Shown here: in pieces, positions 12,295 through 31,556 of the stretch
Layout: each line of letters opens with the position of its first letter
Position numbering within the stretch: position 1 is the first letter of the stretch
NCBI GenBank assembly: GCA_965222225.1
Contig: CBDCTK010000002.1
Location: forward strand, 96,001-160,000
Source of the DNA: Candidatus Poribacteria bacterium
GTDB lineage: Bacteria > Poribacteria > WGA-4E > JAJDTR01
Direction of reading: 5' to 3'
Length of the DNA stretch: 64,000 nt
Program-made: the position numbers and the translations under genes
The notes under the pieces: generated by a model
Told to the model about the DNA's origin: nothing
Database searches by the model: none
What the model saw: only the letters and a program-made list of their open reading frames with translations

Positions 12295-12310
12295 CGAACA
12301 CATCTCAATT

Positions 12311-15605: not shown

Positions 15606-15737
15606 ATGACCTACAGCAAAAAACCAATTGAAGTCGGATTGCCCCTAGACGCCATTAGTCGCGAGACGGCACGCGAGAAATCAATACGACATGGAAACCG
15701 ATTCACGTTTCACCTCTCGTTTGTTTTCATCCCGTAG
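15606..15737 (+). pseudogene. N-terminal remnant of a DUF1156 (adenine methylase-associated) protein
   Basis: MTYSKKPIEVGLPLDAISRETAREKSIRHGNRFTFHL resembles the family N-terminus KKLIEVALPL.AI...AREKSIRHGHPSTLHLWW. Confidence 0.75.
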
Positions 15738-15825
15738 CAGTGCCTACAGTTGCGATAAAAGATACGTTGTGCAACATCTTCAGGACTTCAACTGAACTAG
15801 GTAAAATAAGGAGACTCAAACTAGC

Positions 15826-17013
15826 ATGAGTAGGCTCACGGAATTAGCATTGTTATTGGCAATCGCGGTTCTGATTGTGGGCATCATCGCCTGCGATCAA
15901 CTAATCGGAATATTGACCGAAAAGGAACTGTCCCAGACCGTTCCAGCCCCGCCCCAATTGACAGTCATGAGCGGCGAGTTATCCATCGGACTTCTTTACC
16001 CTATGACTGGAAGACTCGCAGTGACCGGAGCACAAATGAAACAGGGGTTTGACTTGGCAGTCGAAGAGATAAATCATGCACAACTAGGCGGCGCCACTAT
16101 TAACTGCATCTCGGTAGACGATCGAAGTACGGTAGCCGGTGCGGTCGAAGGCTTCAACCAACTAATTCGTCAGACCGAGGTGCCGGCGATCATCGGTCCC
16201 ACCACCTCAAGTCAATGCGAAGCCGCCTTTCCGATTGCGCAAGCAAGCGGGATTGCGGCATTCAGCCCGACATCAGCTGCCACCGGTTTGAGCGCGATTG
16301 GGGATTTCATCTTCCGCGTCACGCTCACCTCGGATGCCCATATTCCGAATAGTGTCAGAGTAACTAAGGAAAAACTCGACTACAAGCATGCCGCATTGAT
16401 ATATGACGAATTGCACGCTATCGCCCTGAGTGGCGCCAACGCCTTTCGAAAGGCGCTAACTGAGAACGGTGTCGAAATCGTGGCGACGGAAACCTTCCAG
16501 ACGGGTGAAACCGACTTTTCGGTTCAACTCACGCGAATTAAGGGGTCAAATCCCGAGGCTATCTTTATAGCGGCATTGCCGCAAGATATGCCCGAGATTA
16601 TGATTCAAGCGCGGGAGCTCGGAATCCCCTTTGCCGTACCATTTATCGTGCCGGAACTGAGCATAGACGATGTGCGGGCGGCGGGGTCGGCTGCTGAGGG
16701 ATTGATATCTTCCACGAGTTGGTTGAGTACCGACCCGAATCCACTCAACCAAACCTTCATTCAGAATTACCGCGCGGCATACGGCGTTGAACCGAACACC
16801 TGGGCGGCACATTCCTATGCGACGGTCTACATTTTGGCTCAAGCAATCGCGAACGCCCAGTCTACGGATGCACAAGCCATTCGGAATGCCATGGCGAATA
16901 TCAAGAATCTTGACACCGTATTGGGAAATTTCTCGTTTGACGCTGACGGGGACGCTGTGCATGACGCAACAATACTTACCGTAGAGAACGGCGAATTCAG
17001 GGTCTTTGAATAA
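15826..17013 (+). CDS. ABC substrate-binding lipoprotein, LivK/LivJ-like (type I PBP)
   Basis: Lipobox IIAC; IGLLYPMTG, IIGP..S, DFSVQLTRIK, LGNFSFD motifs. Confidence 0.9.
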   Translation: MSRLTELALLLAIAVLIVGIIACDQLIGILTEKELSQTVPAPPQLTVMSGELSIGLLYPMTGRLAVTGAQMKQGFDLAVEEINHAQLGGATINCISVDDRSTVAGAVEGFNQLIRQTEVPAIIGPTTSSQCEAAFPIAQASGIAAFSPTSAATGLSAIGDFIFRVTLTSDAHIPNSVRVTKEKLDYKHAALIYDELHAIALSGANAFRKALTENGVEIVATETFQTGETDFSVQLTRIKGSNPEAIFIAALPQDMPEIMIQARELGIPFAVPFIVPELSIDDVRAAGSAAEGLISSTSWLSTDPNPLNQTFIQNYRAAYGVEPNTWAAHSYATVYILAQAIANAQSTDAQAIRNAMANIKNLDTVLGNFSFDADGDAVHDATILTVENGEFRVFE

Positions 17014-17162
17014 GATTCAATTGGAAGGTAGAAGGAGTTGTAAGGCGCACACCAATTCTCGACAACAAGTGCCCCCGGTTTTCCTCTTCGGTTTCCCTTC
17101 CATGCATCGGATTTTCGGTTCTATCGTTTCAATTGATGAAACAACGAGATTGAGTGCCAATT

Positions 17163-17583
17163 ATGAGTAACAAGACTAGGCTTGCGCTTGTATTCGCAGT
17201 TGTCGTTCTAGTGACCTGCATTTCCGGCTGCGATTAGCTACTTGGTATTCTTACAGATAACCAGGTGGCAGAAACAAATGAGCGGGTGCCTCAACTTACC
17301 GGTTTCTCGGGAGAGATACCAATCGGCATAGTTCTGCCGCTCACCGGGCGATTCATCTCGGAGTACGGCTACTTACCGACACAGCTCGGCGCAGAACTCG
17401 CGCTCATCGAAATTAAAAACGCACAACCCGGTGATGCCACAATGAAGGTCGTCAGCTAAATGGCAACCATCATAGATTTAGTCACGGTCTAGGGGACATT
17501 CTCCGTCGACGCTGTGGGGAGGGCGCGGTCTATGAACCTCTCACGCTCAGACTAGCAGATGGGCAGTTTAGAGCATTCAAGTA
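17163..17583 (+). pseudogene. SBP paralog relic with nonsense codon and large internal deletion
   Basis: Leader ...ISGCD then TAG at 17235; GEIPIGIVLPLTG; jumps to C-terminal GTFSVDAVG..AVYEPL...DGQFRAF. Confidence 0.8.
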
Positions 17584-17744
17584 TGGTTCAACCAGAACAA
17601 TAGTAAAAATGGAAGACTGGATGCTTGGAATGATGGTGACATTGGATAGGGCCACTTGACAAACGAATTGATTCCTAGGATATCGTTGTACCTCGTATCA
17701 CACATCATGTTTCAACCAAACGAAAAAGGAGATGCATCATCTAC

Positions 17745-18929
17745 ATGCGTAATATCGCGAATTTAGCGTTTGTGATGGCACTTGTAGTTCTAATTGTGGA
17801 CTTGTCCGCCTGCGATCAATTACTCCGGATATTGCCGGAAGACCAGATGACGGGTGCAGCAGTGCCTCAGTTTACGGACTTTAGTGGAGACATTTCGGTC
17901 GGCGTCGTTTTACCCCTATGCGGGCGGTTAGCATCTTCCTTCGGGGAGCCGATGGACCACGGGCTTCAACTAGCGCTTAAAGAGATCAACGACGGACAAC
18001 TCGGTGATGCTAGAATAAAATTCATGGTCGAAGACGACATGAGCACCGTAAACGGTGCAGTTGCCGCCTTCGAGAGACTAATACATCAGGATAAAGTGTC
18101 CGTAATCCTCGGTCCCGCGACCTCAGCCATGACCGAAGAGGCGTTTCCGGTTGCCCAGCAAAACACTGTTGTAGCTGTTAGCCCGACATCCGCCAAACGC
18201 GGTCTAAGCGCAATTGGCGAATATGTCTTTCGCGTCTCGCTCGCGACAGATGTTTTGATACCCAACGGAATTAATGCGACTCACGCGAAGCTGGCATATG
18301 AACGGGCAGCGACGATGTATGATGAAACCGATCCGTTCTCCGTGGACAGCGAAAACGCGTTGCAAGACCGTCTGGCTGCGATCGGAGTTGGAGTGTTGGA
18401 AACGGAAACCTTTGAGAGCGACGCTACAGACTTCTCCGCGCAATTAACTCGGATAATGGACGTAGATCCTCAAATTGTTTTTGTCTCTTCCCTACCACCC
18501 GAAAAGTCCGACATTCTAATTCAAGCGCGGGAAATTGGAATACCCGCCAGCGTACCAATCGTTTTCCGAACGCTAACTGCAGGGGATGTCGAAGCCGCGG
18601 GCAGCGCTGCCGAAGGGGCAATGACTTTTACAGAGTGGACAGGCGCGTCTGACATACCAAGGAATCAAACGTTCGTGCAGAATTATACTGCGAAATACGG
18701 AGTCGAGCCCAGTAACTATGCCGCCAGGGCGTATGGCGCCCTCTACGTGTTAGCCGAGGCAATTGCGAATGCAGGTTCAACGGATTCAACTGCGATTCGG
18801 AACGCCCTGGCAAATATCAGGAATCTTGACACCATCTTTGGCGAGTTTTCCTTCAATGATGTTGGTGACGCAGTTTACGACCCGATTGTACTCATTGTCG
18901 AAAACGGCGAACTCAAAACCTTCGAATAG
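17745..18929 (+). CDS. ABC substrate-binding lipoprotein, LivK/LivJ-like
   Basis: LSACDQL lipobox; full-length paralog; AAGGAG RBS. Confidence 0.9.
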   Translation: MRNIANLAFVMALVVLIVDLSACDQLLRILPEDQMTGAAVPQFTDFSGDISVGVVLPLCGRLASSFGEPMDHGLQLALKEINDGQLGDARIKFMVEDDMSTVNGAVAAFERLIHQDKVSVILGPATSAMTEEAFPVAQQNTVVAVSPTSAKRGLSAIGEYVFRVSLATDVLIPNGINATHAKLAYERAATMYDETDPFSVDSENALQDRLAAIGVGVLETETFESDATDFSAQLTRIMDVDPQIVFVSSLPPEKSDILIQAREIGIPASVPIVFRTLTAGDVEAAGSAAEGAMTFTEWTGASDIPRNQTFVQNYTAKYGVEPSNYAARAYGALYVLAEAIANAGSTDSTAIRNALANIRNLDTIFGEFSFNDVGDAVYDPIVLIVENGELKTFE

Positions 18930-18958
18930 TCGTATTATGCGTCACAATTTTCTATCTC

Positions 18959-20154
18959 ATGAACACTAATCAAATGACAAAGGTCGGCGTCGCTCTCGCA
19001 ATCATTGCCCTGATTGGAGGGCTTTCCGCATGCGATCAAGTCATTGGGATTTTATCTGATGGTGATACGCCACAGATGATGGATGTGGCGATTCCTCAGC
19101 TAACGGGAATAAGTGGAGAGATTGCCATTGGTGTCGTTAGTCCAGCCACTGGATCACTCGCCGGAGCTGGCGCACGGGCAGGCGGCGCCCTTGAGTTGGC
19201 TGTCGAAGAGATTAACAATGCACAGCTCGGCGATGCAAGACTTACGCTCATTTCCGAGGACGGTCAGAGCACTGTAGAAGGTGCAGTTGCAGCCTTCAAC
19301 AAACTAATTCATCAAGAGGGTGTGTCCGTTATCCTTGGGCCCGCCACCTCAAGTCAAGCCCAAGCCGTCTTTCCGATTGCACAGGAGAATCAGGTTGTGG
19401 CATTTAGCTCGACCTCAGCCGCCTCCGGTTTGAGCACGATAGGCGATTTTGTCTTCCGCGCCGGCCTCACCACAGATGTGCTGATTCCCAGCGGCGTCAA
19501 GGCGACTCATGCAAAACTCGGATACCGGAGTGTGGCGACAATGTACAATGAAAGCGAGCTGTACCCCACAGATAGCGACGAAGCATTGCAGGAAGCGCTT
19601 GCTGAGAACGGTGTCAAGGTGTTGGCGACTGAGACCTTTCAAAATGGGGATACCGACTTTTCCGCGCAACTGACGCGCATAAGGGAGTTGAGTCCTGACG
19701 CCGTCTTTGTGTCGGCATTACCACCAGAAAAACCTGGGATTATGATTCAAGGTAGACAGGTCGGCATTCCCACGGAGGTTCCATTTATTTTAGCCAGTTA
19801 AGCCTAGGCGCTGTGGAAAACGCAGGCGCCGCTGCTGAAGGGGCGATTACTCTTGCGAATTGGGCTAGCTCCGTACCCACCCCAGGGAATGAGGCCTTCG
19901 TCCAGAATTACGGAGCGAAATACGGTGTCGAACCGACGACCTTCGCCGCCTAGGGCTATGCCACGGCCTATATTCTAGCCCATGCGATTGCCAATGCGGG
20001 AGCCACCGATTCAACGGCTATTCGTGACACATTGGCGCAGACAAAGGAGCTTGATACCGTTCTGGGCAAGTTTTCCTTTGACGCCGTTGGAGATGCGGTT
20101 TATGCCCCGACCATTCTCATTGTCGAGCACGGCAAATTCGAGGTTTTCGAGTAA
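18959..20154 (+). pseudogene. SBP paralog with frameshift (~19799) and in-frame TAG (19951-19953)
   Basis: Homology continues from 19801 in another frame (SLGAVENAGAAAEGAI...FAA*GYATA...GKFEVFE*). Confidence 0.85.
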
Positions 20155-20256
20155 TAGGTTATCCGTTGTAACACGTGCTTAGTTCAAGGACTGGTTTCTT
20201 GGGGCCTTCGCTAAAAACGACGAAAACTGACAACGCACTAGTGGTGCTGAGATCTC

Positions 20257-20284
20257 GTAGGGAATAAAGATCGTTATTCCCTAC
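20257..20284. repeat. GTAG...CTAC hairpin (REP-like)
   Basis: GTAGGGAATAA-AGATCG-TTATTCCCTAC, perfect 11-bp stem. Confidence 0.6.
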
Positions 20285-20331
20285 AAAATCGCCATCATTT
20301 GCAACCGAAAATAAGGAGATTGAACATCAAA

Positions 20332-21504
20332 ATGAGTCAAATGACAAGATTCTCGTTTATATTTGTAATTGCCGCACTGATTGTGGGATTTTCTGCGTGC
20401 GATGAGTTGGTTTCAATTTTGTCTGGTGGGGATGCTCCTCAAGTGGAAGGTGTTAGTGGCGAGAATCCTGTTGGTCTCGTATACCCTGTCACGGGACGGC
20501 TAGCCACCTTCGCCCTGCCCATATACCGAGGCTTTGAGTTGGCTCTTGAAGAGATTAACTACGCACAACTCGGCGATGCGAGAATCAAGTTCATCGTCGA
20601 GGATGATCTCAGTACCATAGAGGGGGCAGCTGAAGCCTACCGAAAACTGATTGAACAGGATAATGTCCCGGTTATTTTCGGTCCGACGACATCAGGGCAG
20701 GCCGAAGCAGCGTTTCCAATTGCCCAGCGGAATCAGGTGGTCGCTTTTAGTTCCTCTTCAAACCAAGCTGGCTTAAGTGCGCTCGGCGATTTTCTCTTTC
20801 GCGCGGGCCTTACGACAGATAAGCTGATTCCTGGAGGCGTCCGAGCAATTCATGCAAAACTCGGATATCAACGAGTGGCAATAATATACGATGAGAATGA
20901 CACCTACTCCATTGATAGCCACGAGAATTTTCGGGAAACACTCACCGAGCTCGGCATCACGATTTTAGCAACAGAGACCTTCAAGAGTAGTGACAAAGAT
21001 GGCGAACCCGACTTCTCTACCCAATTGACTCGGATAATGGCGGATAATCCCCAAGCAATTTTTGTCGCGGCTCAGTCGCCGGAGCTGACCAAGATTCAGA
21101 TTCAGGGTCGTCAACTTGGCATTCCATCTGAGGTTCCCTATATTACCAGTCTTATAAGCGACATACCAAATGCAGGCACAGCCGCCGAGGGGGCTATATC
21201 TTTCGCGGGATGGATTGCCACGGCGGATACTCCAGGCAACCAAGCCTTTGTTGAAAAGTACCGTGCGAGGTACGGCAGCGATCCAAACGCTTGGACCGCA
21301 CAATCGTATGCCGCAGTCTATATACTAGCTGAAGCCATCGCAAGAGCCCAATCCACTGACCCGTCCGCGATACGGATTGCCTTGGCGGACATCAGAGATT
21401 TTGACACCGTGTTGGGTAAATTCTCCTTTGACGACGTTGGAGATGCGGTCTACGACCCGATTGTACTGATTGTCGAAGACGGTGCGTTCAAGATTTTTGA
21501 ATAA
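20332..21504 (+). CDS. ABC substrate-binding lipoprotein, LivK/LivJ-like
   Basis: FSACDELVSIL leader; full-length paralog. Confidence 0.9.
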   Translation: MSQMTRFSFIFVIAALIVGFSACDELVSILSGGDAPQVEGVSGENPVGLVYPVTGRLATFALPIYRGFELALEEINYAQLGDARIKFIVEDDLSTIEGAAEAYRKLIEQDNVPVIFGPTTSGQAEAAFPIAQRNQVVAFSSSSNQAGLSALGDFLFRAGLTTDKLIPGGVRAIHAKLGYQRVAIIYDENDTYSIDSHENFRETLTELGITILATETFKSSDKDGEPDFSTQLTRIMADNPQAIFVAAQSPELTKIQIQGRQLGIPSEVPYITSLISDIPNAGTAAEGAISFAGWIATADTPGNQAFVEKYRARYGSDPNAWTAQSYAAVYILAEAIARAQSTDPSAIRIALADIRDFDTVLGKFSFDDVGDAVYDPIVLIVEDGAFKIFE

Positions 21505-21517
21505 AAGTCAATGCGTG

Positions 21518-21569
21518 GTAGGGTGGCTGCTACCCGCCAGCAAACAGGGGTGCGCGGTGTACGCTCTAC
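21518..21569. repeat. Inverted pair of degenerate GTAG REP-like units
   Basis: GTAGGGTGGCTGCTACCCGCC (21518-21538) faces GGTGCGCGGTGTACGCTCTAC (21549-21569). Confidence 0.5.
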
Positions 21570-21756
21570 ATCTGTTTAATGTACTACGGTATGTGGTTTA
21601 ATCACGTACTCGTTGTTATCTCACTATTCAGTTGTTATACTATTTCCCTATATTTACGGTGCATTAGTAGCGTCAATCAGGTTTTTCAATGCGGGGCAGG
21701 ATGCCCCGACTACTAGCTACTAACTGCTCTGTAAGGAACAATAAAGGAGATTCAAC

Positions 21757-23265
21757 ATGAATGAAAGTCGAATTAAAGCGTTCGCGTCTGTACTAGCGAT
21801 TGCCGCTCTGATTGTAGGGATTTCTGCCTGTGACGAGATAGTGGCAATTTTATCCGGTGGCGAAGTGCCTCAGATGGACAGCATGGATGGTGAAATTTCA
21901 ATTGGCGTTGTATTGCCTCAAACGGGGGTTCTCGGTCCAGGCGAGTTCGGTCCGGGTGCACTGGTTATGGAAAATGCCTTTAAGATGGCTCTTGAAGAGG
22001 TCAATAACTTGAAGAGCATGGGAACGCAACTTGAGTTCATCATTGAAGACGATCGGAGCACTGTAGAGGGAGCGGTCGAGGCGTTCAATAAACTTATCCA
22101 CCAAGACAAAGTCCCCGTAATCCTCGGTGTATGGACATCGGAAGTTGCTCAATCCGTCTTTCCTATCGCGCAAGAGAATCAGGTCGTGGCTTTTAGTCCG
22201 GTTGTGCTCGGTGGCGGCTTGACGGAGATTGGTGACTTCGTCTTTCGGGCGGGGCAGCCCACAGACGTGTTAATCCCTGAAGGGGTTAGAGTCACTCGGG
22301 AAAAACTCGGGTATCAACAAGTTGCGACGATAGCTGATTCGGCTGATTTTGCCTCACGGAACAGTGATAAGGTGTTTCGGCAAACGCTCACTGACCATGG
22401 TGTCAAGATTCTCGAAACAGAAATCTTTGAGACCGGTGAGACAAACTTTCTCCCGCAATTGAATCGGATAAAGACCTCTAATCCGGACGCGATTTTTGTC
22501 TCTGCTCAGCAGATAGAGCTAATCAAGATTCTTACCCAAGCTCGCCAGCTTGGAATCCCGTTTGATGTCCCATTTATCAATTTGGTGCTGTCGGCAGATG
22601 ACATCGGAAGCACTGGTGAAGCCGCCGAGGGCACAATTACAATTGCCTCCTGGGTCAGCACGGCGGATTCGCCGGGCAATCAAGCCTTTGTTAAGAATTA
22701 CAAGTCTAAATACGGTCTGCAACCCAGCATTTGGGCTGCGCTTTCATATGCCTCCGTGCATATCCTAGCCGAGGCGATTGTGAACGCCGAATCGACCGAT
22801 TCGGTGGCGATTCGAAACGCACTGGCAAATATCAGCGATTTTGACACGATTTTAGGAAAGTTTGCTTTTGACGCGGTCGGGGACGGTGATTACGCCCCGA
22901 TTGTACTCATCGTCAAAAACGGGAAATTCGAGGTTTTCGGAGGCGATGATACTGTTGATTCGACAACACACATCATTGACGACCTCCCAATTCAGACGGT
23001 CTCGGTAGCAATTCTTGAGAGCTTTCCGCCTCAGGTAAATCTTGAAGTCGAGGGATACCTTGCCGATAGTTGCACGACGCTCCATGAAACTACAGAACGC
23101 CGCGAAGGGGCCACAATTCACGTTCAGGTTACAACCAAACGTCCTATTGACTTGGCGTGCGCCACTGTAATCACTGAAATCGAACATACCGTCCCGCTTG
23201 GATCCTTTGACCCTGGGATGTACAAGGTGATTGTCAACGATGTCGAGGTTGAATTTGAGATCTAG
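21757..23265 (+). CDS. LivK-like SBP lipoprotein fused to a ~95-aa C-terminal beta-rich domain
   Basis: SBP ends at GKFEVF; then ESFPPQV...GYLADSC...LACATVI...GMYKVIVN with two Cys. Confidence 0.88.
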   Translation: MNESRIKAFASVLAIAALIVGISACDEIVAILSGGEVPQMDSMDGEISIGVVLPQTGVLGPGEFGPGALVMENAFKMALEEVNNLKSMGTQLEFIIEDDRSTVEGAVEAFNKLIHQDKVPVILGVWTSEVAQSVFPIAQENQVVAFSPVVLGGGLTEIGDFVFRAGQPTDVLIPEGVRVTREKLGYQQVATIADSADFASRNSDKVFRQTLTDHGVKILETEIFETGETNFLPQLNRIKTSNPDAIFVSAQQIELIKILTQARQLGIPFDVPFINLVLSADDIGSTGEAAEGTITIASWVSTADSPGNQAFVKNYKSKYGLQPSIWAALSYASVHILAEAIVNAESTDSVAIRNALANISDFDTILGKFAFDAVGDGDYAPIVLIVKNGKFEVFGGDDTVDSTTHIIDDLPIQTVSVAILESFPPQVNLEVEGYLADSCTTLHETTERREGATIHVQVTTKRPIDLACATVITEIEHTVPLGSFDPGMYKVIVNDVEVEFEI

Positions 23266-23536
23266 TGCGCGGCTATCAAATCTAAGCAATCAAGAAGGGG
23301 GGAAGAGAAGGAAGTCTATTCCCCCTTTCAATCGTGACAATAGAGATTAAGTTCAATAGCCTCGCAAAATAGGTTGACAATTCCTGCAGTTGTATAAGAT
23401 AATACGCATGAACTGAGTTATTGCGTCGAGAAATTAGTGGAATGGTAGTCAAAAAGCGATTTATCTGCCGCGAGATTTGAATTTGAGTGTTATCATCTTG
23501 AGTAACAACAAAAACCAACGCAAAACAGAGAGGTTT

Positions 23537-24196
23537 ATGATGAACGCGAGTCGAGTCACGAAATTTGCATTCCTCTTGGCGGTTGCTACACTAGTTGTGG
23601 GGCTTTCAGCATGTGACCAATTGGTTTCAATTCTAACTTCTGGCGATATGCCTGATGGTGAGATACCAGATGAAATGGGAATGATGACCGGGCTACCGAT
23701 GGGCATTGCTATGTACAGGTCCTGGACCAGTACCGAGCTTGAAGCCCCGCCTGCAACGTTCACAAGGCCAGAGGACAGTGGCGTTGCACACGGCGCGGGA
23801 ATCAGGACTGTTTATATCAATGCACCGGGGGTCTCGACGCTCCAAGACATGAGCGCAGAAACCTTCCCTAACGGTACCACGATTGTTAAAGATATCATGG
23901 ACAACACCAACTCATTCCTTTGGCGAGTCGCGGTCATGTGGAAGCTGGACGATATGGCGTACGCTGACCACAACGGCTGGAAGTATGTCCAGTACCAGCG
24001 GGAGACCGAGGCTTCGGACTTAATGGCAGTTGCTGGCGATGGCACCGAGCGCGGCAGCAACGGGTGCCACGCTTGCCACTCTAAGGTGAATACGGAGGAC
24101 GTGCCGGGCAAAGATAGTGTCTTCGTCCAACTCCCGATGCCCGGTGACGGCATGGCTGATGATGGCATGACAGACGATGGAGATGGTTCCAACTAG
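23537..24196 (+). CDS. Lipoprotein with cytochrome P460-family c-type heme domain and acidic DDG tail
   Basis: SACDQLVSILTSGDMP leader; YRSW...HG...RTVYIN...FPNGTTIVKD...VMWK...GWKY...CHACH...DSVF. Confidence 0.8.
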   Translation: MMNASRVTKFAFLLAVATLVVGLSACDQLVSILTSGDMPDGEIPDEMGMMTGLPMGIAMYRSWTSTELEAPPATFTRPEDSGVAHGAGIRTVYINAPGVSTLQDMSAETFPNGTTIVKDIMDNTNSFLWRVAVMWKLDDMAYADHNGWKYVQYQRETEASDLMAVAGDGTERGSNGCHACHSKVNTEDVPGKDSVFVQLPMPGDGMADDGMTDDGDGSN

Positions 24197-24382
24197 TAGC
24201 AGACCGTAGTCCGAATGATGAGCCACCTGAGGCGAGAGATTTTACTCAAGAGCCGTCATGTGAGGTGCAATCTTAAAACCAACTGACGGAGCTGGCTGGC
24301 TTGCCGTTGTATAGTAACCGCAAATTGGGTCGGAAGGAATTTACGACTCAGTCTGCATCAAACTTTTGTGAGTTCTGCAATT

Positions 24383-24441
24383 GCCAAATTTCGCGTGGTG
24401 ACTGGATTTGTTTTCCCAGTATCCGTGAGGTGGGTTTTTTT
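24383..24441 (+). terminator. Long hairpin plus U-tract (copy 1 of 3, most diverged)
   Basis: GCCAAATTTCGCG...ACTGG/CCAGT...CGTGAGGTGGGT followed by a T run. Confidence 0.6.
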
Positions 24442-24878
24442 ATTCTCTGCGACGAGTCGAAAAGGATTTTACCCCAGGCACCGCCCACTTTGGCTCGTGT
24501 CCTGCTAATCATTTCACGCAGGATTGTGATTTGCTTACCGTAGCTGTGAGAGATGCCGTGTTGGCGCCCAAAATGTGTAGGTTCGTTGCGGTTTCCTCAT
24601 TCAACCATCGCGTTGTCAGAGAGGGACTGCAGGCTCTTGGTCGGCGCATCTCCCTGCGATGCGGATTCGGTGTAATACTACTTTACAATTCCTCTAATTT
24701 TTTAGGATAATACGTTTAGCGCCGAAAGGCATGTTAAAGCAACTAAAAGATGATTTATTGGCGTCAAGGGAGACAGACTTTACCACACGAGACTTTAATT
24801 CATGTGGTTAGAAGTTACAACTTGAGTTATGTCATTTGAGATAACAATGCAAAGCAGCGATTAGTAAGGAGATTTAAC

Positions 24879-26135
24879 ATGAACATGAGTCGGATCACAA
24901 GATTCGTATTCGTCTTGGCGGTTGCGGTAATGATTATGGGGTTTTCCGCCTGCGATCAGTTGGTCTCAATTCTAACGTCTGGCGATATGCCAGAGCCGCC
25001 TGAGGTCGGGGTTACCGTTGGGGTGGTCTTGCCTTTGTCAGGGCAATATGCCGCCTTGTACGGACATTCAATGCTAAATGGCTTTGAGTTGGCGCGGAAT
25101 GAGATTAATAGTTCTCAAGTCGGTGCTCCGGGGATTGCCTTCATCACTGCTGACGATGAGGCTACCGTAGACGGAGCAAAGGCGGCATTCAAAAAATTGA
25201 TTGAGCAAGACGGTGTCCCTGTAATCTTGGGTCCCGGATTCTCCAGTCAGGCGAGAGAAACCTTTCCTATTGCCACCGAGAACGGCGTTGTGGCATTTAG
25301 CTCGATTTCGTCGGCGTCCGGTATAAACATGGCGGGCGATGCCAACTTCCGCGCCGGCTTAATCACCTCCCGGTTGAACCCTCCCGGCGTCAGGGCGACC
25401 CACACGGCCTTACGTTACCAGAACGTGGCTACAATGTATGATGAAGCCGATACCTATTCCACAATCGGACACGGCGATTTGACAGGAGCTCTCACGGCAT
25501 TGGGTGTCGAAATACTTACGACGGAGACCTTTACTGGCGGCAGCACCGACTTCTCAGCCCAACTGACGCGAATCAAGGACTTAAACCCTGATGCCATCTT
25601 TGTCTCAGCCTTATCGGCAGAAATGGACGATATTCTGATGAAAGGTAGAGAACTCGGCATCCCCTATTCGGTTCCGTTCATCATTCCGGAACTGTGGAAT
25701 ACCGAAGCCGCCGCCGCCGGGGAAGCAGCGGAGGGGACGATTTCCTTCAATGGGTGGTCGAACTTTGCCTCCACTCCGGGCAATCATGCCTTCATCGAAA
25801 ATTATCTAGCAGCTTACGGTACTGATCCTGATCCGTGGGCGGCGCAGTCTTATGCAACGCTGCATATTCTTGATGAGGCGGGTACCCGAGCCGGGTCAGC
25901 CGACCCAGTGGCAATCGCGGAGGCATTGAGAGGAATAAGCGGCCTCGACACGATTTTGGGAAGTTTCTCGTTTGACAAGAACGGCGACGCAATCTATGAA
26001 CCGTTCGTTCACATTGTCAAGAATGGCAAACTTGAGCCATTTGACGGTAGCGAGATGTCCTCAGGCGATGATACAACGGGCGATGGCATGATAGATGACG
26101 ATATGTCCTCAGACGACGGAGACGGTTCCAACTAA
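24879..26135 (+). CDS. LivK-like SBP lipoprotein with acidic DDG...GSN tail
   Basis: Leader SACDQLVSILTSGDMP identical to the 23537 gene; tail GDGMIDDDMSSDDGDGSN. Confidence 0.9.
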   Translation: MNMSRITRFVFVLAVAVMIMGFSACDQLVSILTSGDMPEPPEVGVTVGVVLPLSGQYAALYGHSMLNGFELARNEINSSQVGAPGIAFITADDEATVDGAKAAFKKLIEQDGVPVILGPGFSSQARETFPIATENGVVAFSSISSASGINMAGDANFRAGLITSRLNPPGVRATHTALRYQNVATMYDEADTYSTIGHGDLTGALTALGVEILTTETFTGGSTDFSAQLTRIKDLNPDAIFVSALSAEMDDILMKGRELGIPYSVPFIIPELWNTEAAAAGEAAEGTISFNGWSNFASTPGNHAFIENYLAAYGTDPDPWAAQSYATLHILDEAGTRAGSADPVAIAEALRGISGLDTILGSFSFDKNGDAIYEPFVHIVKNGKLEPFDGSEMSSGDDTTGDGMIDDDMSSDDGDGSN

Positions 26136-26204
26136 TGAAAACTCTTAGTTAGGAAGCGAGTGAAGAGCTGACCGCCAATTCAACATTGGTTTGGGTCATA
26201 TACT

Positions 26205-26261
26205 GCCCAATTCGCTGGCGCTTAGGATTGATTTTCCGATTGTCGCGAATCGGGCTTTTTT
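26205..26261 (+). terminator. Long hairpin plus U-tract (copy 2)
   Basis: GCCCAATTCGC...GCGAATCGGGC-TTTTTT. Confidence 0.7.
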
Positions 26262-26579
26262 ATGCTCATGAGAATCAAAGGCTTTTATCCCTAGTTCGTA
26301 GCTGCCAAATTATGGCGCGTAGATTGGATACCTGCTTTCAGAAGCACAGGGCGAGGCAAAAAACGCCGTTCCGCCTTAAAATTTAGGTGCGATTGTCCTG
26401 AATTTACCTCTAAAATAGCTTGACAACGTTCTTATGTTTTGGCACAATTAATAAAGGTGTTGCGTAACTCAAAGGACAGCAACAATCAACCACTGTCCAT
26501 GCAGAATTCAGTTTTTTGGGTGTGCCTTTGACCAGAGTTTTATCACCTTAAACAACAATAAAGGAGATTTACTACAAAT

Positions 26580-26933
26580 ATGAATCAAATCAAGAGATTC
26601 GCACTTGTCTGTATGATTGTAACGCTTGTTGTGGGGCTTTCAGCCTGCGATGAGCTGGTCTCAATCTTGTCTACTAGCGATCTGCCTCAGATGGTAGATG
26701 ATGGTATGACCGACGACGGCACGACCGATGATGGCATGGTAGATGATGGTACGACCGACGATGGCACGACCGACGATGGCATGGTAGATGATGGTATGAC
26801 CGACGATGGCACGACCGATGATGGCATGGTAGATGACGGTATGACCGATGATGGCATGACGAACGACGGGATGGCTGACGACGATACGTCTGATGACGGT
26901 ATGTCTTCAGACAACGGAAATGGTTCCAACTGA
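26580..26933 (+). CDS. Lipoprotein consisting only of the shared leader and acidic pentapeptide repeats
   Basis: AAGGAG RBS; LSACDELVSIL; about 14 DDG(M/T)(T/V)-type units; ends DNGNGSN. Confidence 0.8.
   Translation: MNQIKRFALVCMIVTLVVGLSACDELVSILSTSDLPQMVDDGMTDDGTTDDGMVDDGTTDDGTTDDGMVDDGMTDDGTTDDGMVDDGMTDDGMTNDGMADDDTSDDGMSSDNGNGSN
26697..26906 (+). repeat. 15-bp coding tandem repeat with 45-bp higher-order period
   Basis: GAY-GAY-GGY-(ATG/ACG)-(ACC/GTA) units. Confidence 0.9.
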
Positions 26934-27109
26934 TGGGAAACCCAAATCAGAAGGATGAGACACCTCAGATGGAGAAACTCGTTTGAGAAGTCGTCTTGCG
27001 TCTAGTGCGGATTCAAATTCCGTGGCGTTTGACCCATGGCAGCCATGGATTGAGTTCGAAAAGGCCAAGAGTTGTACATCTACTAAACCTTGGTTTAAGT
27101 AATTACAAT

Positions 27110-27170
27110 GCCCGATTCCGTTTGGCGATTGGATTTAAATCTTTCCACTTGCCGCGAATCGGGCTTTTTT
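27110..27170 (+). terminator. Long hairpin plus U-tract (copy 3)
   Basis: GCCCGATTC...GAATCGGGC-TTTTTT. Confidence 0.7.
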
Positions 27171-27197
27171 ATGTCTAATTCCGATGCGTTGCTCCCC

Positions 27198-28097
27198 TCA
27201 TTTGCCCAAACTCGCTGGCGGTTTCGATTTTCCGATGACGCCGACAAGAACTACCATGGTCAACAAATAGGGCAGACACTGTAACAGTTGGGACGGGATT
27301 TGCCAACGGTTTGCCAGTTCCAGCGCGTTTGTAAATCCGAACAGCACACATCCCATCACCATTCTATACGGGCTCCAATTTCCAAAAATCACCGCCGCAA
27401 GAGCGACGTATCCTCGTCCGGCGGGCATTCCCTTCGTGAAATAATGCGCTTCAGACGCGAGAAAACAGCCGCCTAGCCCGGCGAACACGCCGCTTGCCGT
27501 CACTCCGACATACTGCCACCATGCGCGACTGAGACCGAGCGTGTTTAATGCTTCAGTCGATTCCCCTGCCGCTCGCAGTCGTAAACCCCACGGTGTGTTA
27601 AAAAGGAAGACATGACTCCCAACCATGAGAAGAAGCGTAAGATGGACTAGACACGAATAACTTCCAATGAACGGTAAGTTCCACTGGTTTGTCCCTTCTA
27701 CTCGCATTGACGTAGCATTACGGCTAAGAAACTCTGTGATACCGATCGCCAAGAAGTTTATCGCAATGCCACTAACGATTTGATCCGCTTGAAATGAAAT
27801 GGATGCTATTGCGTGGACCAAGGCAATGAAAGTACCGCAGCAAATTCCGACAATCAGGCCAATCCAAGTAGAGTCAGACGCACCAGTGCCGATGACATAT
27901 CCAAAGGCGCTCACTAACATAATTCCTTCAAGGGCGATATTGACGACGCCAGAGCGTTCGGAGAAGATGCCACCGAGACCTGCTAAGGTCAATGGTGTTG
28001 ACATACGAATTGCGATTGGAATGAGTTCAGAGATTATTGTGCTGGCCTCCTCGGGTTGCCTTCCAAACACTAATAGGAGCCCGGGGTTGTCGCGCAT
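27198..28097 (-). CDS. ABC permease, nucleoside/sugar type (NupC/YufQ-like)
   Basis: SERSGVVNIALEG, GLRLRAAGE, GRGYVALAAVIFGNW, LPYLLT motifs; start uncertain. Confidence 0.85.
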   Translation of the reverse strand: MRDNPGLLLVFGRQPEEASTIISELIPIAIRMSTPLTLAGLGGIFSERSGVVNIALEGIMLVSAFGYVIGTGASDSTWIGLIVGICCGTFIALVHAIASISFQADQIVSGIAINFLAIGITEFLSRNATSMRVEGTNQWNLPFIGSYSCLVHLTLLLMVGSHVFLFNTPWGLRLRAAGESTEALNTLGLSRAWWQYVGVTASGVFAGLGGCFLASEAHYFTKGMPAGRGYVALAAVIFGNWSPYRMVMGCVLFGFTNALELANRWQIPSQLLQCLPYLLTMVVLVGVIGKSKPPASLGK

Positions 28098-28213
28098 CGC
28101 TAGTGGAAGACTTCGGTTTTAACCGATTCGGTTGTACAGTTTTCAGGCACCGGTGTTTCAGGTTTTCAAGTTTTCGCAGCCGTTCACGCTACCTTACTCC
28201 AAGCATCGCTTCG

Positions 28214-29294
28214 TCATTTAAATCGAATGGAAGCCAGGCATATAATCAATGCGGCTTGGATAATGAGAAACAACTCTCTTGGTACGTTCATCAAGATTTC
28301 AACGTCCAAAGCTCCTTTGTTTAGAGCGCCAAATAGGAGTGCAGCGAGGCAGACACCGTAAGGATGGTTTCGTCCGAGCAACGCAGCGGCGATTCCGGTG
28401 TAGCCAAAGCCGGGCGAGAAATTGTCGAGGAAGCGGTGGCGATAGCCCATAACGTCCCACACACCCGCCAAACCTGCAATAGCACCGCTTAACGCCATCG
28501 TCCAAACTGTGACAGCGCGGACATTAATGCCATAGGTTGCCACGTCGGGCGCATCGCCGACTAGCCGCAACTCATAACCGTATTGGGTGCGCTTCAAGAA
28601 AAACTGGCAGAAAAACGTTGCGAACAACGCCAGAAGAAACGTGACATTTAACGGGTTGCTCTCGGGTTGCTCTTTGGAAGAAGCCCAAGGTATGCTGAAA
28701 TACGCGGTAGATGCGCAGTGTCATGAATCTGCGGCGTTTGAGGAGTCATTTGTCCCGCTTCTTGGTATACCTCTGTAACCAAGTAGCTAGTCAACGCGAT
28801 CGCGATAAAGTTCATCATGATTGTGTTGATGACCTCGTGGACATCAAATTTCGCTTTGAGAATCCCGGCAATCGCAGCCCATCCCGCGCCTGCCGCCATC
28901 GCTGCAAAGATGCAAAGGGGTATGAGTATAATTGCAGGAGGTTGAAATGAAATCCCACCCAAGCAGCGACAAATCCGCCCGCGTAGAGTTGTCCCTCGCA
29001 GCCAATGTTGAATAACCCGCACTTGAAGCCGATTGCGACGGCTAGTCCCGTAAAGATTAACGGCGTCGCATTAAATAGGACGTATCCGAAGTCATCCAAG
29101 CTGCCAAACGCACTCAAAACGAGAATTCGATAAACCTCCAACACATCTTCGCCGAGAATTCCGATTACGAGACTACTCAATACAATCACAATCCCGAGTG
29201 CGAATGCGATTGGAAGACCTGCGTGGAGTATCCTGTTGATTTGAGGTTTCGAAATAGATGGGACTCTTGCCACAATGAAAATTACAAATGGCAA
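28214..29294 (-). pseudogene. ABC permease (NupB/YufP-like) broken by two frameshifts
   Basis: Three successive ORFs: GLFNIGCEGQ / EVINTIMMNFIA / GFGYTGIAAALLGRNHP. Shifts near 28945 and at an 11-bp tandem duplication (28652-28673). Confidence 0.85.
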
Positions 29295-29507
29295 TACGGT
29301 TGAGGTATGTGATATTGTATGGGGTGGCTATCCATTCATACGTTAAAGTCCGCCGGCTTGTTTCAGTGGATTCAGATTGTATGGTTGACGGCCCTTAGAA
29401 TGACAAAGTCGTTTCAAGTTAGCAGTGTGGTAACAAAAAGATTTCGTTAGCCGATGCAACGCGTTGAAACATCCGCTGGCATTTACTGTCGGCAAGGAGA
29501 AGATGCA

Positions 29508-31556
29508 ATGGCAGGTGCAAAGATACTGGTTGTTGAACATGAAAGCAGTGTCGCCACCTATGTCGTGGAATTGTTAGAAACCTTGGGGTATGTGGCTTCT
29601 AGTGTTGTGTGCACCGGGGAAGAAGCAATACAAAAAGCGGCGAAAACCCGTCCACAATTAGCGCTAATTGATATCACTTTGAAAGGTAAAATGGATGGCG
29701 TAGAGACGGGAGAACAGATACACAACCGCTTCAATATTCCTGTGGTTTATCTAACGGATCGTGCAAACGAAGACCTACTGAAGCGGGCAAAGATAACCGA
29801 ACCATTCGGCTATGTTCTCAAACCCGTTGAAGAAAGGCGATTGCACCTCAACATCGAAATTGCCCTCTACAGACATGAAACGGAACGGCGTTTCAGGGAG
29901 AGAGAGCAGTGGCTGTCTACTATTCTTAGAAGTATCGGCGATGCTGTAATCGCTGTAGACGAAGGCGGTATGGTGACTTTCATGAATCCGGTTGCCCAGG
30001 TTTTGACAGGCTGGCGACTAGAGGAGATTTCGGGAAAGCACCTGGCCGATATATTCCACGTTAGAACTGAAAAAACTAGCGTTCCAATCCAACACCACAT
30101 AATGGATGCGCTCCACAAAGGAACCATCGTTGGACGGACGGATCGTCATACCACGCTCATTTCCAAGGTTGGGCGAGAAACACCGATTGATTACAATGCT
30201 GCACCCCTCAGAGATGACCAGAACAACATCGTTGGCGTTGTAGTGGTCTTCCGTGACATTGCAAAGCGCACGCGAGCCGAAGACAAATTGAAGCAAACTG
30301 CCAACACGTTACGCAATCAAACCCAAATCATGCAATCTATCTTTGATAGCATCGGCGATGGCGTGGTCGTTGCGAATGAAAGCGGGGAATTCATGCTCTT
30401 CAATCCGAATGCAGAGCGGATTATCGGGATGAGCGAGACAGATACGTCGCCCGATCAGTGGTCGGAGAAATATGGGATATTTTCACCTGATCGTGTCACA
30501 CCTTTTGCGAGAGAGGAGCTCCCCTTGGTGCGAGCAATCAGAGGTGAAGCATCGGATGAAGTTGAGATGTTTGTGTGCAATCCCAAAGTGCCTGATGGCG
30601 TCTATGTCAGCGCCAGCGGAAGGCCGTTACACGAGGAATCGGGGGTGCCGAAAGGTGGTGTTGTTGTCTTTCGTGATATCACCGAGCGTAAGCGGGCAGA
30701 AGAGGCGTTGGCTCAGGCATTCTCGCGAGGGAGACTGGAAGTCGTAGACACCATCCTTCATAATATTGGCAATGCGATTAACAGTGTGACGATAGGAATA
30801 GGAACAATTCACGGACATTTGGTAAGGAACAGGTTAATGGGGCGTCTCCATGCGCTTGCGGATGCCGTCAGAGTAAATCAAGATGATTTAGCCAATTACA
30901 TAAAAAACGATCCGCAGGGCAAGCAGGTAGCTCCATTCGTCGTTGCTCTTGCCGAAGACTTTGCCGAACAGAATGAAAAGTTGAAAAAAACTGTCGCCCG
31001 CGTCGGTGATAGGGTCGAACACATTGCAGATATTGTACGCATGCAAAAGTCGCTTGGGCGACGAAATGTCGATCGTAAAGATATCAACCTTCGAAAGGCT
31101 ATTGCGGATGCGGTTAAGGTACTTCAAGAGTCGATTAAGAAGCGAGACATTGAGGTTCATGTTGATTGCGAAAACGCTCCAAGCGAGATCCGGATTCAGG
31201 AAAGTCAGTTTCACCAGATGTTGGTCAACTTAATCAAGAACTCGATCGAAGCTATCGACGAACTTGCTGAATCGAGCGGGTTAAGAACAACGCCCAGCAT
31301 CAAAGTCAGATCTTTTATCCAACCGGGATTTCTTACCCTAGAAGTGGTTGACAACGGCATCGGAATCGAAAAGAAAAAATTTAAGGTTATCTTTGGCGCC
31401 GGCTATACAACCAAACAATCGGGGAGCGGTCTCGGTCTTCATTCAATTGCGAATTTCGTTATCGGTTCAGGGGGGAAGATACAGCCCTTGAGTGACGGAA
31501 TCGGAAGAGGAACAACCATGCGGGTCATACTGCCGCTGTCCACAATCAAGGTGTAG
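29508..31556 (+). CDS. Cytoplasmic hybrid sensor kinase REC-PAS-PAS-HisKA-HATPase
   Basis: N-terminal receiver (LIDI...KP), two PAS/PAC domains, LHNIGNAIN H-box, DNGIGI and GSGLGL boxes; no TM segment. Confidence 0.9.
   Translation: MAGAKILVVEHESSVATYVVELLETLGYVASSVVCTGEEAIQKAAKTRPQLALIDITLKGKMDGVETGEQIHNRFNIPVVYLTDRANEDLLKRAKITEPFGYVLKPVEERRLHLNIEIALYRHETERRFREREQWLSTILRSIGDAVIAVDEGGMVTFMNPVAQVLTGWRLEEISGKHLADIFHVRTEKTSVPIQHHIMDALHKGTIVGRTDRHTTLISKVGRETPIDYNAAPLRDDQNNIVGVVVVFRDIAKRTRAEDKLKQTANTLRNQTQIMQSIFDSIGDGVVVANESGEFMLFNPNAERIIGMSETDTSPDQWSEKYGIFSPDRVTPFAREELPLVRAIRGEASDEVEMFVCNPKVPDGVYVSASGRPLHEESGVPKGGVVVFRDITERKRAEEALAQAFSRGRLEVVDTILHNIGNAINSVTIGIGTIHGHLVRNRLMGRLHALADAVRVNQDDLANYIKNDPQGKQVAPFVVALAEDFAEQNEKLKKTVARVGDRVEHIADIVRMQKSLGRRNVDRKDINLRKAIADAVKVLQESIKKRDIEVHVDCENAPSEIRIQESQFHQMLVNLIKNSIEAIDELAESSGLRTTPSIKVRSFIQPGFLTLEVVDNGIGIEKKKFKVIFGAGYTTKQSGSGLGLHSIANFVIGSGGKIQPLSDGIGRGTTMRVILPLSTIKV

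Follow-up and report, generated by a model that had tools for sequence, protein, structure and literature searches.

Three adjoining lipoprotein genes of a Candidatus Poribacteria genome and the probable fission of a gene for a solute-binding protein fused to cytochrome P460

How do three consecutive genes come to share a lipoprotein leader, an acidic tail, and a downstream hairpin, with different domains in between? The question was raised by the window analyzed here, a stretch of 64,000 nucleotides from a Candidatus Poribacteria genome (C2:96001-160000). The original prediction took three of its forward-strand genes for a membrane-anchoring chassis with interchangeable payloads. All four of the elements on which it was built (leader, tail, hairpins, and payloads) are present where it placed them. 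Sixteen leader residues, SACDQLVSILTSGDMP, are the same in the genes at 23537-24196 and 24879-26135, and the gene at 26580-26933 carries a variant, SACDELVSILSTSDLP. The acidic tail common to the three ends in GGTTCCAAC and a stop codon (C-termini DDGDGSN, DDGDGSN, and DNGNGSN). Each gene closes with the codons GGT TCC AAC ahead of its stop, and DNA homology runs on beyond the stop (24171-24231 vs. 26908-26968, 75% identical; repeat family D13). The payloads do differ: Pfam assigns Cytochrome_P460 to the first gene, Peripla_BP_6 to the second, and no family to the third. The P460 gene (219 aa) consists of a leader (23537-23659) with a signal peptide of the solute-binding protein (SBP) type, lipobox LSAC, and tether DQLVSILTSGDMP, then a cytochrome P460/c'-beta domain, and a tail (24137-24196) that reads MPGDGMADDGMTDDGDGSN before the stop. 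The second gene, SBP6 (418 aa), is made of a leader, an SBP domain, and a linker remnant plus tail (26043-26135, DGSEMSSGDD...DDGDGSN and stop). The third product, of 117 aa, is a leader that continues in frame into approximately 79 residues of pentapeptide repeat tail.

The homology of the three genes also spans a promoter-like site and the 5'UTR, which the original prediction overlooked. The site of the P460 gene (TTGACA-18-GATAAT, 23374-23403) is homologous to those of SBP6 (24682-24711) and the third gene (26420-26448). Downstream of each gene comes a related imperfect hairpin, some 50 nt long and trailed by a T-run (at about 24383-24443, 26205-26263, and 27110-27172), and in a blastn search of the whole genome the three match only one another. 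Folding places a homologous hairpin and U-run after all three genes, as in intrinsic terminators. The z-scores of 121-nt stretches against shuffled sequence are -0.85, -1.86, and -4.69, so that only the third hairpin folds clearly better, and a terminator consensus scan flags only 26235-26254, within the second. The three genes are built alike from promoter to terminator.

A leader HMM matched 12 open reading frames (ORFs) of this genome at E<=1.1e-6 among approximately 75,000 stop-to-stop ORFs. Since the next match was at E=0.27, chance resemblance is excluded. Ten of the 12 carriers are SBPs, and the other two are the P460 gene and the repeat-only gene. In 41 genomes of the order, ORFs of about 390-460 aa account for nearly all leader matches. 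The leader is the native N-terminus of one LivK-type SBP subfamily and no free module. It would be the subfamily's own Sec/lipoprotein signal, ending in a conserved tether, Cys-Asp-Gln/Glu-Leu-Val-x-Ile-Leu. The flagged genes close a tandem array of paralogous solute-binding lipoproteins of the LivK type (Peripla_BP_6), with seven SBP-family genes or remnants lying upstream of or among them. Five leader-bearing SBP genes directly upstream (15826-23265) and four more elsewhere in the genome had escaped the original prediction. Those homologues that bear a name are labeled Candidatus Poribacteria. On the forward strand, the array opens with SBP1 (15826-17013; leader IIACDQLIGIL, Peripla_BP_6 at 232 bits). 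A remnant of a further SBP gene follows (17220-17581), an orthologue of G005 7373-8587 at 74.7% and 68% identity by tblastn. It keeps residues 27-105 and 386-404 in different frames, with one TAG inside the leader match. Next are SBP2 (17745-18929), SBP3 (18959-20152; repeat family D4), which by tblastn occupies two frames and has a frameshift near residue 280, and SBP4 (20332-21504), which the SBP tree makes an orthologue of the relatives' S4-X genes, without their C-terminal extension. SBP5 (21757-23265) combines a leader and a divergent SBP domain with a C-terminal extension of 108 residues, for which Pfam gave no match. SBP domains score 131-232 bits against the PF13458 cut-off of 31.7 (SBP6, 174.5 bits). 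In the three flagged genes, a basic n-region and a hydrophobic core lead into lipoboxes (LSAC, FSAC, and LSAC) that fit the motif [LVI][ASTVI][GAS]C. Downstream, on the opposite strand, lie two ABC permease genes (BPD_transp_2, 27198-29294) that are syntenic in relatives, the second with two frameshifts; no ATPase gene was identified beside them.

The heme domain scores 44.5 bits for PF16694 against a cut-off of 27 and has CxxCH at residues 177-181, near the C-terminus; 33 sequences all have C177, H178, C180, and H181. In true cytochrome P460, a lysine side chain is cross-linked to the heme, and K118 and K136 are invariant in the alignment. An AlphaFold2 model (mean pLDDT 75) predicts the beta-sheet fold of the family, and its best Foldseek matches are c'-beta proteins (7EAD, E 1.8e-6; 6HIH, 1.3e-5; 6HIU, 1.5e-4; all with probability 1.00).

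The relatives show how the P460 and SBP6 genes belong together. Payloads were expected to vary between related genomes, and they do, as fused versus split and as intact versus deleted SBP7. At the same locus, six of nine congeneric genomes (G002, G004, G006, G007, G008, and G009, with a frameshift in G006) carry a single ORF of 549-600 aa that encodes a leader, an SBP, a P460 domain, and in some a tail. This genome and three others (G001, G003, and G005) have two genes, leader-P460-tail and leader-SBP with or without a tail. Public data hold twelve fused protein clusters with both PF13458 and PF16694. In a tree of 59 SBP domains, five fusion SBP domains and four stand-alone SBP6 form one clade (SH-aLRT 100), with SBP7 as its sister (support 95); SBP6 and the fusion SBP domains are orthologous. 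The split P460 gene starts exactly in the fusion linker (DG(S)EMPDE..GLPMDIAMY), and SBP6 ends in the same linker and then enters the tail. Promoter-like site, 5'UTR, and terminator were copied together with the genes. The split genomes do not form one clade on rpoB (AU test, p=1e-41), nor do they on the SBP domain (p=5e-49) or on the P460 domain (p=1e-81). G001, a split genome, and G009, a fused one, have nearly identical P460 domains, within a common tract of 743 bp at 95.4% identity vs. 85-88% in the surroundings. Recombination within conserved flanks moved a P460-plus-tail module between these species. To that extent, the suggested exchange of payloads through conserved ends was correct; what did not stand is the notion that these ends frame a chassis for unrelated domains.

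The repeat-only gene has a separate origin in the adjacent paralogue, SBP7. By blastn, 26456-26680 matches the 5' end of SBP7 of G005 at 88% identity and 26778-27200 its tail and 3' flank at 75%, and the approximately 1100 bp between the two matches are missing here; repeat families D2 and D6 and the tail comparison agree. Intact SBP7 (420-458 aa) is found in six relatives and probably also in public data, where a 255-nt continuation in run X4 would fit it. A second deletion allele, in which the leader is followed by EGVQGEIAIG and MADDG.., is carried by protein P0085 and also seen in run X17. The array further contains a second SBP gene with an internal deletion, a frameshifted SBP gene, and a frameshifted permease gene, and the third gene is most likely a decay product. 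The existence of two in-frame leader-tail alleles could also indicate that selection maintains the short product, which would then not be debris.

Taken together, these data are probably best explained by duplication of a fusion gene, complementary domain deletions, decay of SBP7, and later recombination between species. The ancestor of the genus would have had one gene encoding leader, SBP, linker, P460 domain, and acidic tail, and its whole transcription unit, promoter to terminator, would have been duplicated in tandem. Loss of the SBP domain from the upstream copy would have left leader-P460-tail, and loss of the P460 domain from the downstream copy leader-SBP-tail, a net fission by duplication and complementary deletion. 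In SBP7 of this strain, an SBP domain of about 1.1 kb was deleted in frame and the 15-nt repeat of the tail expanded. Homologous recombination between species then shuffled modules, and consequently the split and fused forms depart from the species tree. Anatomy, orthology, the SBP7 deletion, and recombination are shown by the data; as to direction, we infer fission, not fusion. Intergenic DNA yielded no domain remnants that would prove deletion, and the leader/P460 junction no clean microhomology. Where the tail came from is ambiguous: none is present on the nearest free-standing P460 proteins (clusters P0026 and P0030-P0035; 57-64% identity), and SBP7 is tailed with no P460 domain. The opposite course, with two genes ancestral and the fusion a later event in some lineages, is a weaker candidate that we consider unlikely. 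Split-form G005 branches earliest in the genus on a rooted rpoB tree, which is a one-marker tree, so parsimony cannot polarize the change, and P460 lipoproteins that stand alone, with tethers of a similar kind (CDQLVEILTPAPPEEDMP) and acidic tails, are widespread among other Poribacteria. However, genes ordered P460 then SBP could not give the SBP-P460 domain order by simple deletion between neighbors. The split P460 signal peptide is also of the SBP type, closest to the G008 and G009 fusion leaders (22 of 25 residues identical to G008) and unlike the MLKFQ..ISC type of free-standing Poribacteria P460 lipoproteins, whereas the split SBP6 genes have another leader type. Fusion would leave the SBP6 tail without a source.

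Fission of a fusion gene also has to be weighed against readings in which the common ends have a purpose of their own. A dedicated anchoring chassis, whose leader and tail direct sorting or assembly and whose unrelated payloads were swapped by recombination, is very unlikely, although several observations speak for it. Between the P460 gene and SBP6, eight codons of the 16-residue tether differ, all synonymously, unlike the signal peptide, where nine of 19 codons differ non-synonymously. By this sequence comparison, the tether after the lipid-bearing Cys is under purifying selection and may have a role of its own. Other genera have unrelated P460 lipoproteins with similar tethers, a split and a fused gene have exchanged a P460-plus-tail module, and in SBP5 the SBP domain was replaced in front of a conserved C-terminal extension. 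But only two kinds of domain stand behind the leader in 10 genomes of the genus, both from one fusion gene, and in this genome the payloads are probably leftovers of an SBP-P460 or SBP gene. As a candidate sorting or assembly signal the tail is unconvincing: just three ORFs of the genome have it, its length ranges from 0 to 61 residues among relatives, in-frame stop codons cut it off in G002 and G004, and SBP6 of G003 and SBP7 of G004 lack it. It is hypervariable and often lost. Homology also reaches the non-coding flanks, as duplication predicts. The imperfect hairpin after each ORF might instead suggest integron-type mobile cassettes with the hairpins as recombination sites. We give this practically no credence, since the T-runs make the hairpins resemble intrinsic terminators, each gene has its own promoter-like site, and the genes keep fixed syntenic positions in 10 genomes. 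None of the 12 tyrosine-recombinase (PF00589) matches in the genome falls in the window, and the nearest, at C2:460603, is more than 300 kb away. An assembly artefact, with the leader-P460 junction or the repeat-only gene arising by collapse or chimerism among paralogous SBP genes, is highly improbable. The array is repetitive and several genes of the locus have frameshifts. No short-read contig bridges the repeats at 26672-26777, so the exact length of that array is known from the assembly alone. Against an artefact, contigs from four runs of four studies, X1, X4, and X17 among them, span the leader/P460 junction and continue from the P460 gene into SBP6; an X17 contig of 1806 nt makes the latter link. 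The X1 contigs among those listed have 0 differences from the window, the same split form is found in G001, G003, and G005, and the independent record P0085 shows a related deletion allele.

Where the products reside and what they do we infer from sequence. Each is probably lipid-anchored and faces the periplasm; should the E. coli rule hold in these bacteria, Asp at position +2 would retain it at the inner membrane. The SBP is a putative binder of a small nitrogenous solute, the heme domain may bind or convert NO or NH2OH, and the tail would be a disordered, dispensable, acidic repeat bearing Met and His. It is conceivable, but rather doubtful, that the tether (Cys-Asp-Gln-Leu-Val-x-Ile-Leu, for retention or docking) and the [M/T]-x-D-D-G tail (for metal binding or partner docking) are Poribacteria-specific modules that tie the SBP and a P460/c'-beta heme protein into a periplasmic system for nitrogen compounds such as NO and NH2OH. 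The locus would then be kept modular on purpose by interspecies exchange of P460, SBP, and tail modules in conserved flanks, and the domain-less leader-tail product would be maintained, given its two in-frame alleles. Fission of the fusion gene, if it is the correct history, offers a clean, datable bacterial case of a multidomain gene coming apart, in which both states survive in one genus, the daughters retain all flanking signals, and modules are visibly exchanged between species. It also draws attention to an SBP-cytochrome P460/c'-beta fusion in Poribacteria, which by the usual reasoning about fused genes would tie a solute-binding protein to putative NO or hydroxylamine chemistry. Our literature searches found no paper describing such a fusion, and in the two sources where one is named, the label is simply "ABC transporter substrate-binding protein". 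The architecture is apparently undescribed; the evolutionary processes acting on it are known. No new kind of cassette or sorting system is revealed.

Each part of the locus has a known counterpart from which it departs. Like LivK/HAAT SBPs (PF13458), the array SBPs score above the family cut-off, have a canonical lipobox, and are tandem paralogues near ABC permease genes. However, they reach no NCBIfam equivalog (best PRK15404, 92 bits vs. a cut-off of 477), some have a C-terminal P460 domain, a 108-residue Pfam-less domain, or a pentapeptide repeat tail, and the adjacent permeases best match another transporter type, a putative B6 transporter, also far below its cut-off. The heme domain resembles cytochrome P460/c'-beta (PF16694; PDB 7EAD, 6HIH, 6HIU, and 2JE2) in Pfam score, C-terminal CxxCH, and predicted fold, but it is only 17-26% identical to solved structures, is lipid-anchored via an SBP-type leader or, in relatives, placed behind an SBP, and has an acidic repeat tail. 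That tail recalls the pentapeptide MXKDX repeat proteins (TIGR02953), which are small secreted proteins of Met-containing pentapeptide repeats. The match is weak: the 117-aa product is not a member, at 22.7 bits against a cut-off of 41, its repeat is [M/T]-x-D-D-G, and its gene derives from an SBP gene. All eight leaders of the array have Asp directly after the lipid-bearing Cys, as in the Lol-avoidance signal of E. coli lipoproteins (the Asp +2 rule, described in PMC9595528). The rule was established for E. coli, though, and the conserved stretch here is longer (CDQLVxIL); the LolCE-like match lies below the family cut-off (256 vs. 362 bits). For the splitting itself, the closest parallel is the Drosophila monkey-king family, in which gene fission reportedly proceeded by duplication and then complementary degeneration, with a two-domain gene copied in tandem and a different domain surviving in each copy. 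The case proposed here differs in being bacterial, in that both daughters keep the N-terminal leader, the C-terminal tail, the promoter, and the terminator, and in that both states coexist in one genus and recombine.

The three open reading frames described in the original prediction, with a shared leader and tail and differing payloads, are present as it gave them, all on the forward strand. The P460 gene (23537-24196) encodes 219 aa with a Pfam Cytochrome_P460 domain (44.5 bits against a cut-off of 27), SBP6 (24879-26135) encodes a LivK-type solute-binding protein (SBP) of 418 aa (Peripla_BP_6, 174.5 bits), and the third gene (26580-26933) encodes 117 aa that matched no Pfam family. The 16 residues after the lipobox, SACDQLVSILTSGDMP, are common to the P460 gene and SBP6, while the third gene has SACDELVSILSTSDLP at this stretch, and an acidic tail ending in GGT TCC AAC and a stop codon closes all three. 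Upstream, homology covers a conserved 5'UTR element and a promoter-like site, with TTGACA or TTTACA followed by GATAAT or CACAAT, whose distance from the gene is much alike in all three. Downstream, DNA homology continues beyond the stop codons (family D13, 61 nt, 75% identity), and at the end of all three 3' flanks lie imperfect hairpins, about 50 nt long and homologous to one another, with a T-run after them. The hairpins matched nothing but each other in a blastn search of the whole 5.7-Mb genome; their z-scores against shuffled sequence were -0.85, -1.86, and -4.69, with clear excess stability in the third only. Because the 5' flank, leader, tail, 3' flank, and hairpin are all homologous, each gene forms a complete and similar transcription unit, and "cassette-like" is a fair label. 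An integron-cassette reading was rejected, given the T-runs after the hairpins and the lack of any tyrosine-recombinase match within the window. The 5'UTR element, TTGAGT.TTATCA..T....AACAA, lies just 5' of the ribosome-binding site (23480-23520, 24820-24860, and 26540-26575) and in SBP6 contains the inverted repeat GTTAT..ATAAC; a role as an operator or as an RNA hairpin is possible. An Rfam search of 15000-30000 with permissive filters returned nothing beyond a single sub-threshold match to Ref68 (24448-24555; 21.3 bits, the gathering score being 44), which was taken as chance. Contigs from RNA libraries (public runs X15 and X17) overlap parts of all three genes, which is not proof of transcription.

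Five further leader-bearing genes, all Peripla_BP_6, lie directly upstream on the same strand: SBP1 (15826-17013), SBP2 (17745-18929), SBP3 (18959-20152), SBP4 (20332-21504), and SBP5 (21757-23265), the last with an extra C-terminal domain of 108 residues. An SBP remnant at 17220-17581, also on the forward strand, has residues 27-105 and 386-404 left in different frames; this gene is intact in the congeneric genomes G005, G001, and G002. A profile HMM built from 62 leaders of the source genome and its relatives found 12 ORFs in the source genome at E<=1.1e-6, the next match being at E=0.27. Eight of these are in the array, and the other four (positions 778940, 1496361, 1992156, and 1995339 of the source contig, C2) belong to the same SBP subfamily; the leader is lacking in two LivK-type SBPs of the genome that are more distant. 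Leader matches occurred in 28 of 41 genomes of the order and, among the matches listed, the ORFs carrying the leader almost always measured about 390-460 aa. On this distribution, the leader is the native N-terminus of one SBP subfamily and not a free module. In the source genome the tail is confined to the three genes of the prediction and is absent from the other leader-bearing ORFs.

The syntenic locus was retrieved from nine genomes of the same genus. In six of them (G002, G004, G006, G007, G008, and G009) a single fused ORF encodes the leader, SBP, linker, and P460 domain; most of the six also have the tail, and the ORF of G006 is frameshifted. The remaining three (G001, G003, and G005) have the two-gene, or split, form of the source genome. 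Twelve clusters of fused proteins, 508-588 aa long and matching PF13458 as well as PF16694, are in a public protein collection, and the close homologues, where the source gives a name, are called Candidatus Poribacteria. In a tree of SBP domains (59 of 64 domain hits, the five under 300 residues having been dropped), five fusion SBP domains and four stand-alone SBP6 domains formed one clade (SH-aLRT 100), with six SBP7 genes as its sister (support 95). Protein alignments place the boundaries within the linker: the split P460 protein passes from its leader (..SGDMP) directly into the fusion linker, DG-E[I/M]PDE..GLPM[D/G]IAMY, and SBP6 terminates in that linker (PFDGSEM) before its tail begins.

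We consider it probable that the split form arose by fission. The fusion unit would have been duplicated from promoter to terminator, the upstream copy then losing its SBP domain to become the split P460 gene and the downstream copy losing its P460 domain to become SBP6. This direction is favored because the signal peptide of the split P460 gene is of the SBP type, with 22 of 25 residues equal to those of the G008 fusion and 17 of 25 to those of SBP6; free-standing Poribacteria P460 lipoproteins, including the paralogue in the source genome at C2:899204, have another type of signal peptide. It is favored also because the gene order is P460-SBP but the domain order of the fusion is SBP-P460, because the whole unit is duplicated from promoter to terminator, and because fission accounts for the tail on SBP6. 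The reverse, a split ancestor with a later fusion, seems to us unlikely, though several observations speak against fission. A split genome, G005, is basal on the rooted rpoB tree, and the intergenic DNA is free of domain debris: no remnants turned up when the fusion proteins and SBP7 were compared with 23266-27200 by tblastn, the extra matches having E values of at least 0.04. Convincing microhomology is likewise absent at the junctions, with none that is defensible at the leader/P460 junction; at the SBP/tail junction a common ATGCC, compatible with the G005 sequence, is too short to be evidence.

The four split genomes do not group together on a DNA tree of rpoB, a single marker, rooted on four outgroup genomes: G005 diverges first, G003 pairs with the fused G009 (support 100/99), and G001 is nested in the G002/G004/G006 clade (100/100). 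Monophyly of the split genomes, with the caveat that this group is defined by the feature under test, was rejected on rpoB (AU p=1e-41) and likewise on the SBP (p=5e-49) and P460 (p=1e-81) domains. Alleles of the P460 domain fall into two deep classes, both of which include split as well as fused genes, and the P460 domains of G001 (split) and G009 (fused) are nearly identical. The tract common to these two genomes covers 743 bp at 95.4% identity, from just past the leader junction to the terminator; most segments around it are 85-88% identical, and two other short stretches reach 95-96%. Since the split genes have in common two leader types that characterize them and derived features at the junction (MM[T/S]GLP), we favor one origin, with later recombination between species, rather than several independent ones. 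The rpoB open frame itself varies in length, with 1439-1440 aa in the source genome (C2:1175069-1179289, locus L031) and G007 (locus L034), 1362 aa in G005, and 1308-1320 aa in the other seven congeners; the longer frame of the first two suggests an insertion or a longer upstream frame.

The third gene has a different history. Positions 26456-26680 are 88% identical to the 5' end of SBP7 in G005, positions 26778-27200 are 75% identical to its tail and 3' flank, and the roughly 1100 bp encoding the SBP domain are absent between them. Consequently, the 117-aa gene is SBP7 minus an internal segment, deleted in frame. This is most simply read as decay, since the same array also contains an SBP with an out-of-frame internal deletion as well as frameshifts in SBP3 (one) and in the second ABC permease (28214-29294; two). 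These frameshifts are either true decay or assembly indel errors. Another in-frame deletion allele (leader, EGVQGEIAIG, then MADDG...) is found in the public protein record P0085 and in one contig of run X17, and one further small deletion in such an allele could have produced that of the window. Given two in-frame alleles, selection on the short product retains some plausibility. In run X4, a 255-nt continuation at the same point is consistent with an intact SBP7. An apparent joint from 26434 to 26598 in runs X1 and X15 was attributed to cross-matching of paralogous leaders, its sides being short (19 and 30 letters). Runs X19 and X20, labeled "sponge metagenome", had shares of 0.16 and 0.13, and we draw no habitat inference from either.

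The tail repeat unit is 15 nt long and encodes the pentapeptide [M/T]-x-D-D-G. Intact SBP7 tails in six relatives have 0, 9, 17, 32, 47, and 61 residues, and that of the third gene has about 79; the repeat array at 26672-26777 was bridged by no contig across four runs, which is neutral as to its length. The tail is hypervariable in composition as well, being DDG-rich here and His/Asp/Glu-rich in G001, G007, G008, and G009. In-frame stop codons cut it off in G002 (TAG) and G004 (TAA), with recognizable tail codons beyond both, and it is missing from SBP6 of G003 and SBP7 of G004. We read it as a disordered, dispensable, and slippage-prone segment; its Met/His/Asp content hints, speculatively, at cation binding. 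Free-standing P460 lipoproteins (protein P0063) can also have an acidic tail ending in Asn or Gln, and they too show this pentapeptide repeat. The 129-aa public protein P0086 has a free-standing P460-type leader (MLKFQ..VACER..) and, immediately after it, some 15 [M/T/A]-x-D-D-G repeats, so the repeat also occurs on the N-terminal side of Poribacteria lipoproteins. The second P460-family lipoprotein of the source genome, at C2:899204, is a 211-aa open frame with the leader ..LLVSCDEKITLDLVDPVPPEE.. and no acidic tail.

The leader tether is under selective constraint. Between the P460 gene and SBP6, eight codons of the 16-residue stretch differ, all synonymously, and non-synonymous differences affect 9 of the 19 codons of the signal peptide before it. 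Synonymous-only changes in the tether indicate that its identity was kept by selection, not by recent gene conversion. All eight array leaders have an aspartate next to the lipidated cysteine. In E. coli, an aspartate there is reported to be a Lol-avoidance signal that retains the lipoprotein on the inner membrane (PMC9595528). If this rule holds here, such retention would fit the SBP of an importer. A LolCE-like match fell below its cut-off and a LolA match just above its own, weakly supporting a putative Lol pathway. Strikingly similar tethers, for example ISCDQLVEILTPAPPEEDMP, occur on free-standing P460 lipoproteins of other Poribacteria genera, so a lineage-specific tether function is possible.

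SBP4/SBP5 (20332-23265) is a second domain-level rearrangement of the same array. In most relatives an S4 domain and the 108-residue C-terminal extension are in one gene. SBP4 of the source genome is without the extension; SBP5 has it, 83% identical to that of G005, and the SBP domain preceding it there is a different one, sharing 54% identity with S4 and 69.5% with the distant paralogue at C2:1992156. The SBP5 extension (22951-23265; about 104-108 residues, two cysteines, ending in ..VIVNDVEVEFEI) matched no Pfam family and is conserved in genes of eight relatives. Upstream of the array, the stretch 11267-15158 contains a zeta-toxin/AAA_33-like ORF (11267-12073) and two ORFs of 588 and 277 aa with no Pfam match, and the neighborhood 5' of the array varies among congeners. 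In G006 (locus L016) two minus-strand ORFs of 276 aa (5560-6390 and 13697-14527) flank the SBP array. Their first 25 and last 15 residues are identical, synteny with other genomes stops beyond them, and the pair resembles copies of a mobile element on either side of the array.

An AF2 model of the P460 domain (mean pLDDT 75) had beta-sheet cytochromes c' as its best fold matches (7EAD, E 1.8e-6; 6HIH), followed by the P460 proteins of Methylococcus (6HIU) and Nitrosomonas, and CxxCH was invariant across 33 sequences. The best NCBIfam matches of the SBP, branched-chain amino-acid and urea binders, were all far under their cut-offs. In the model we consider most likely, the three genes would be transcribed separately and yield periplasmic lipoproteins, each anchored by the same SBP-type leader. 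SBP6 would bind a small solute, the P460 gene product would be a heme protein of the NO/NH2OH-handling family, and the third product would be a remnant lacking any domain. Fusion of the SBP and heme domains in relatives suggests that the two act together; a complex prediction of the SBP6 domain with the P460 domain (score 0.00, mark 0.32) is neutral on this point. Literature searches found no paper on cytochrome P460 in Poribacteria and none describing the SBP-P460 architecture, and those for cytochrome P460 with a substrate-binding protein gave only papers that appear unrelated by title and abstract. In databases, the two sources that name the architecture call it an ABC-transporter SBP. The evolutionary processes behind the locus are themselves well known.
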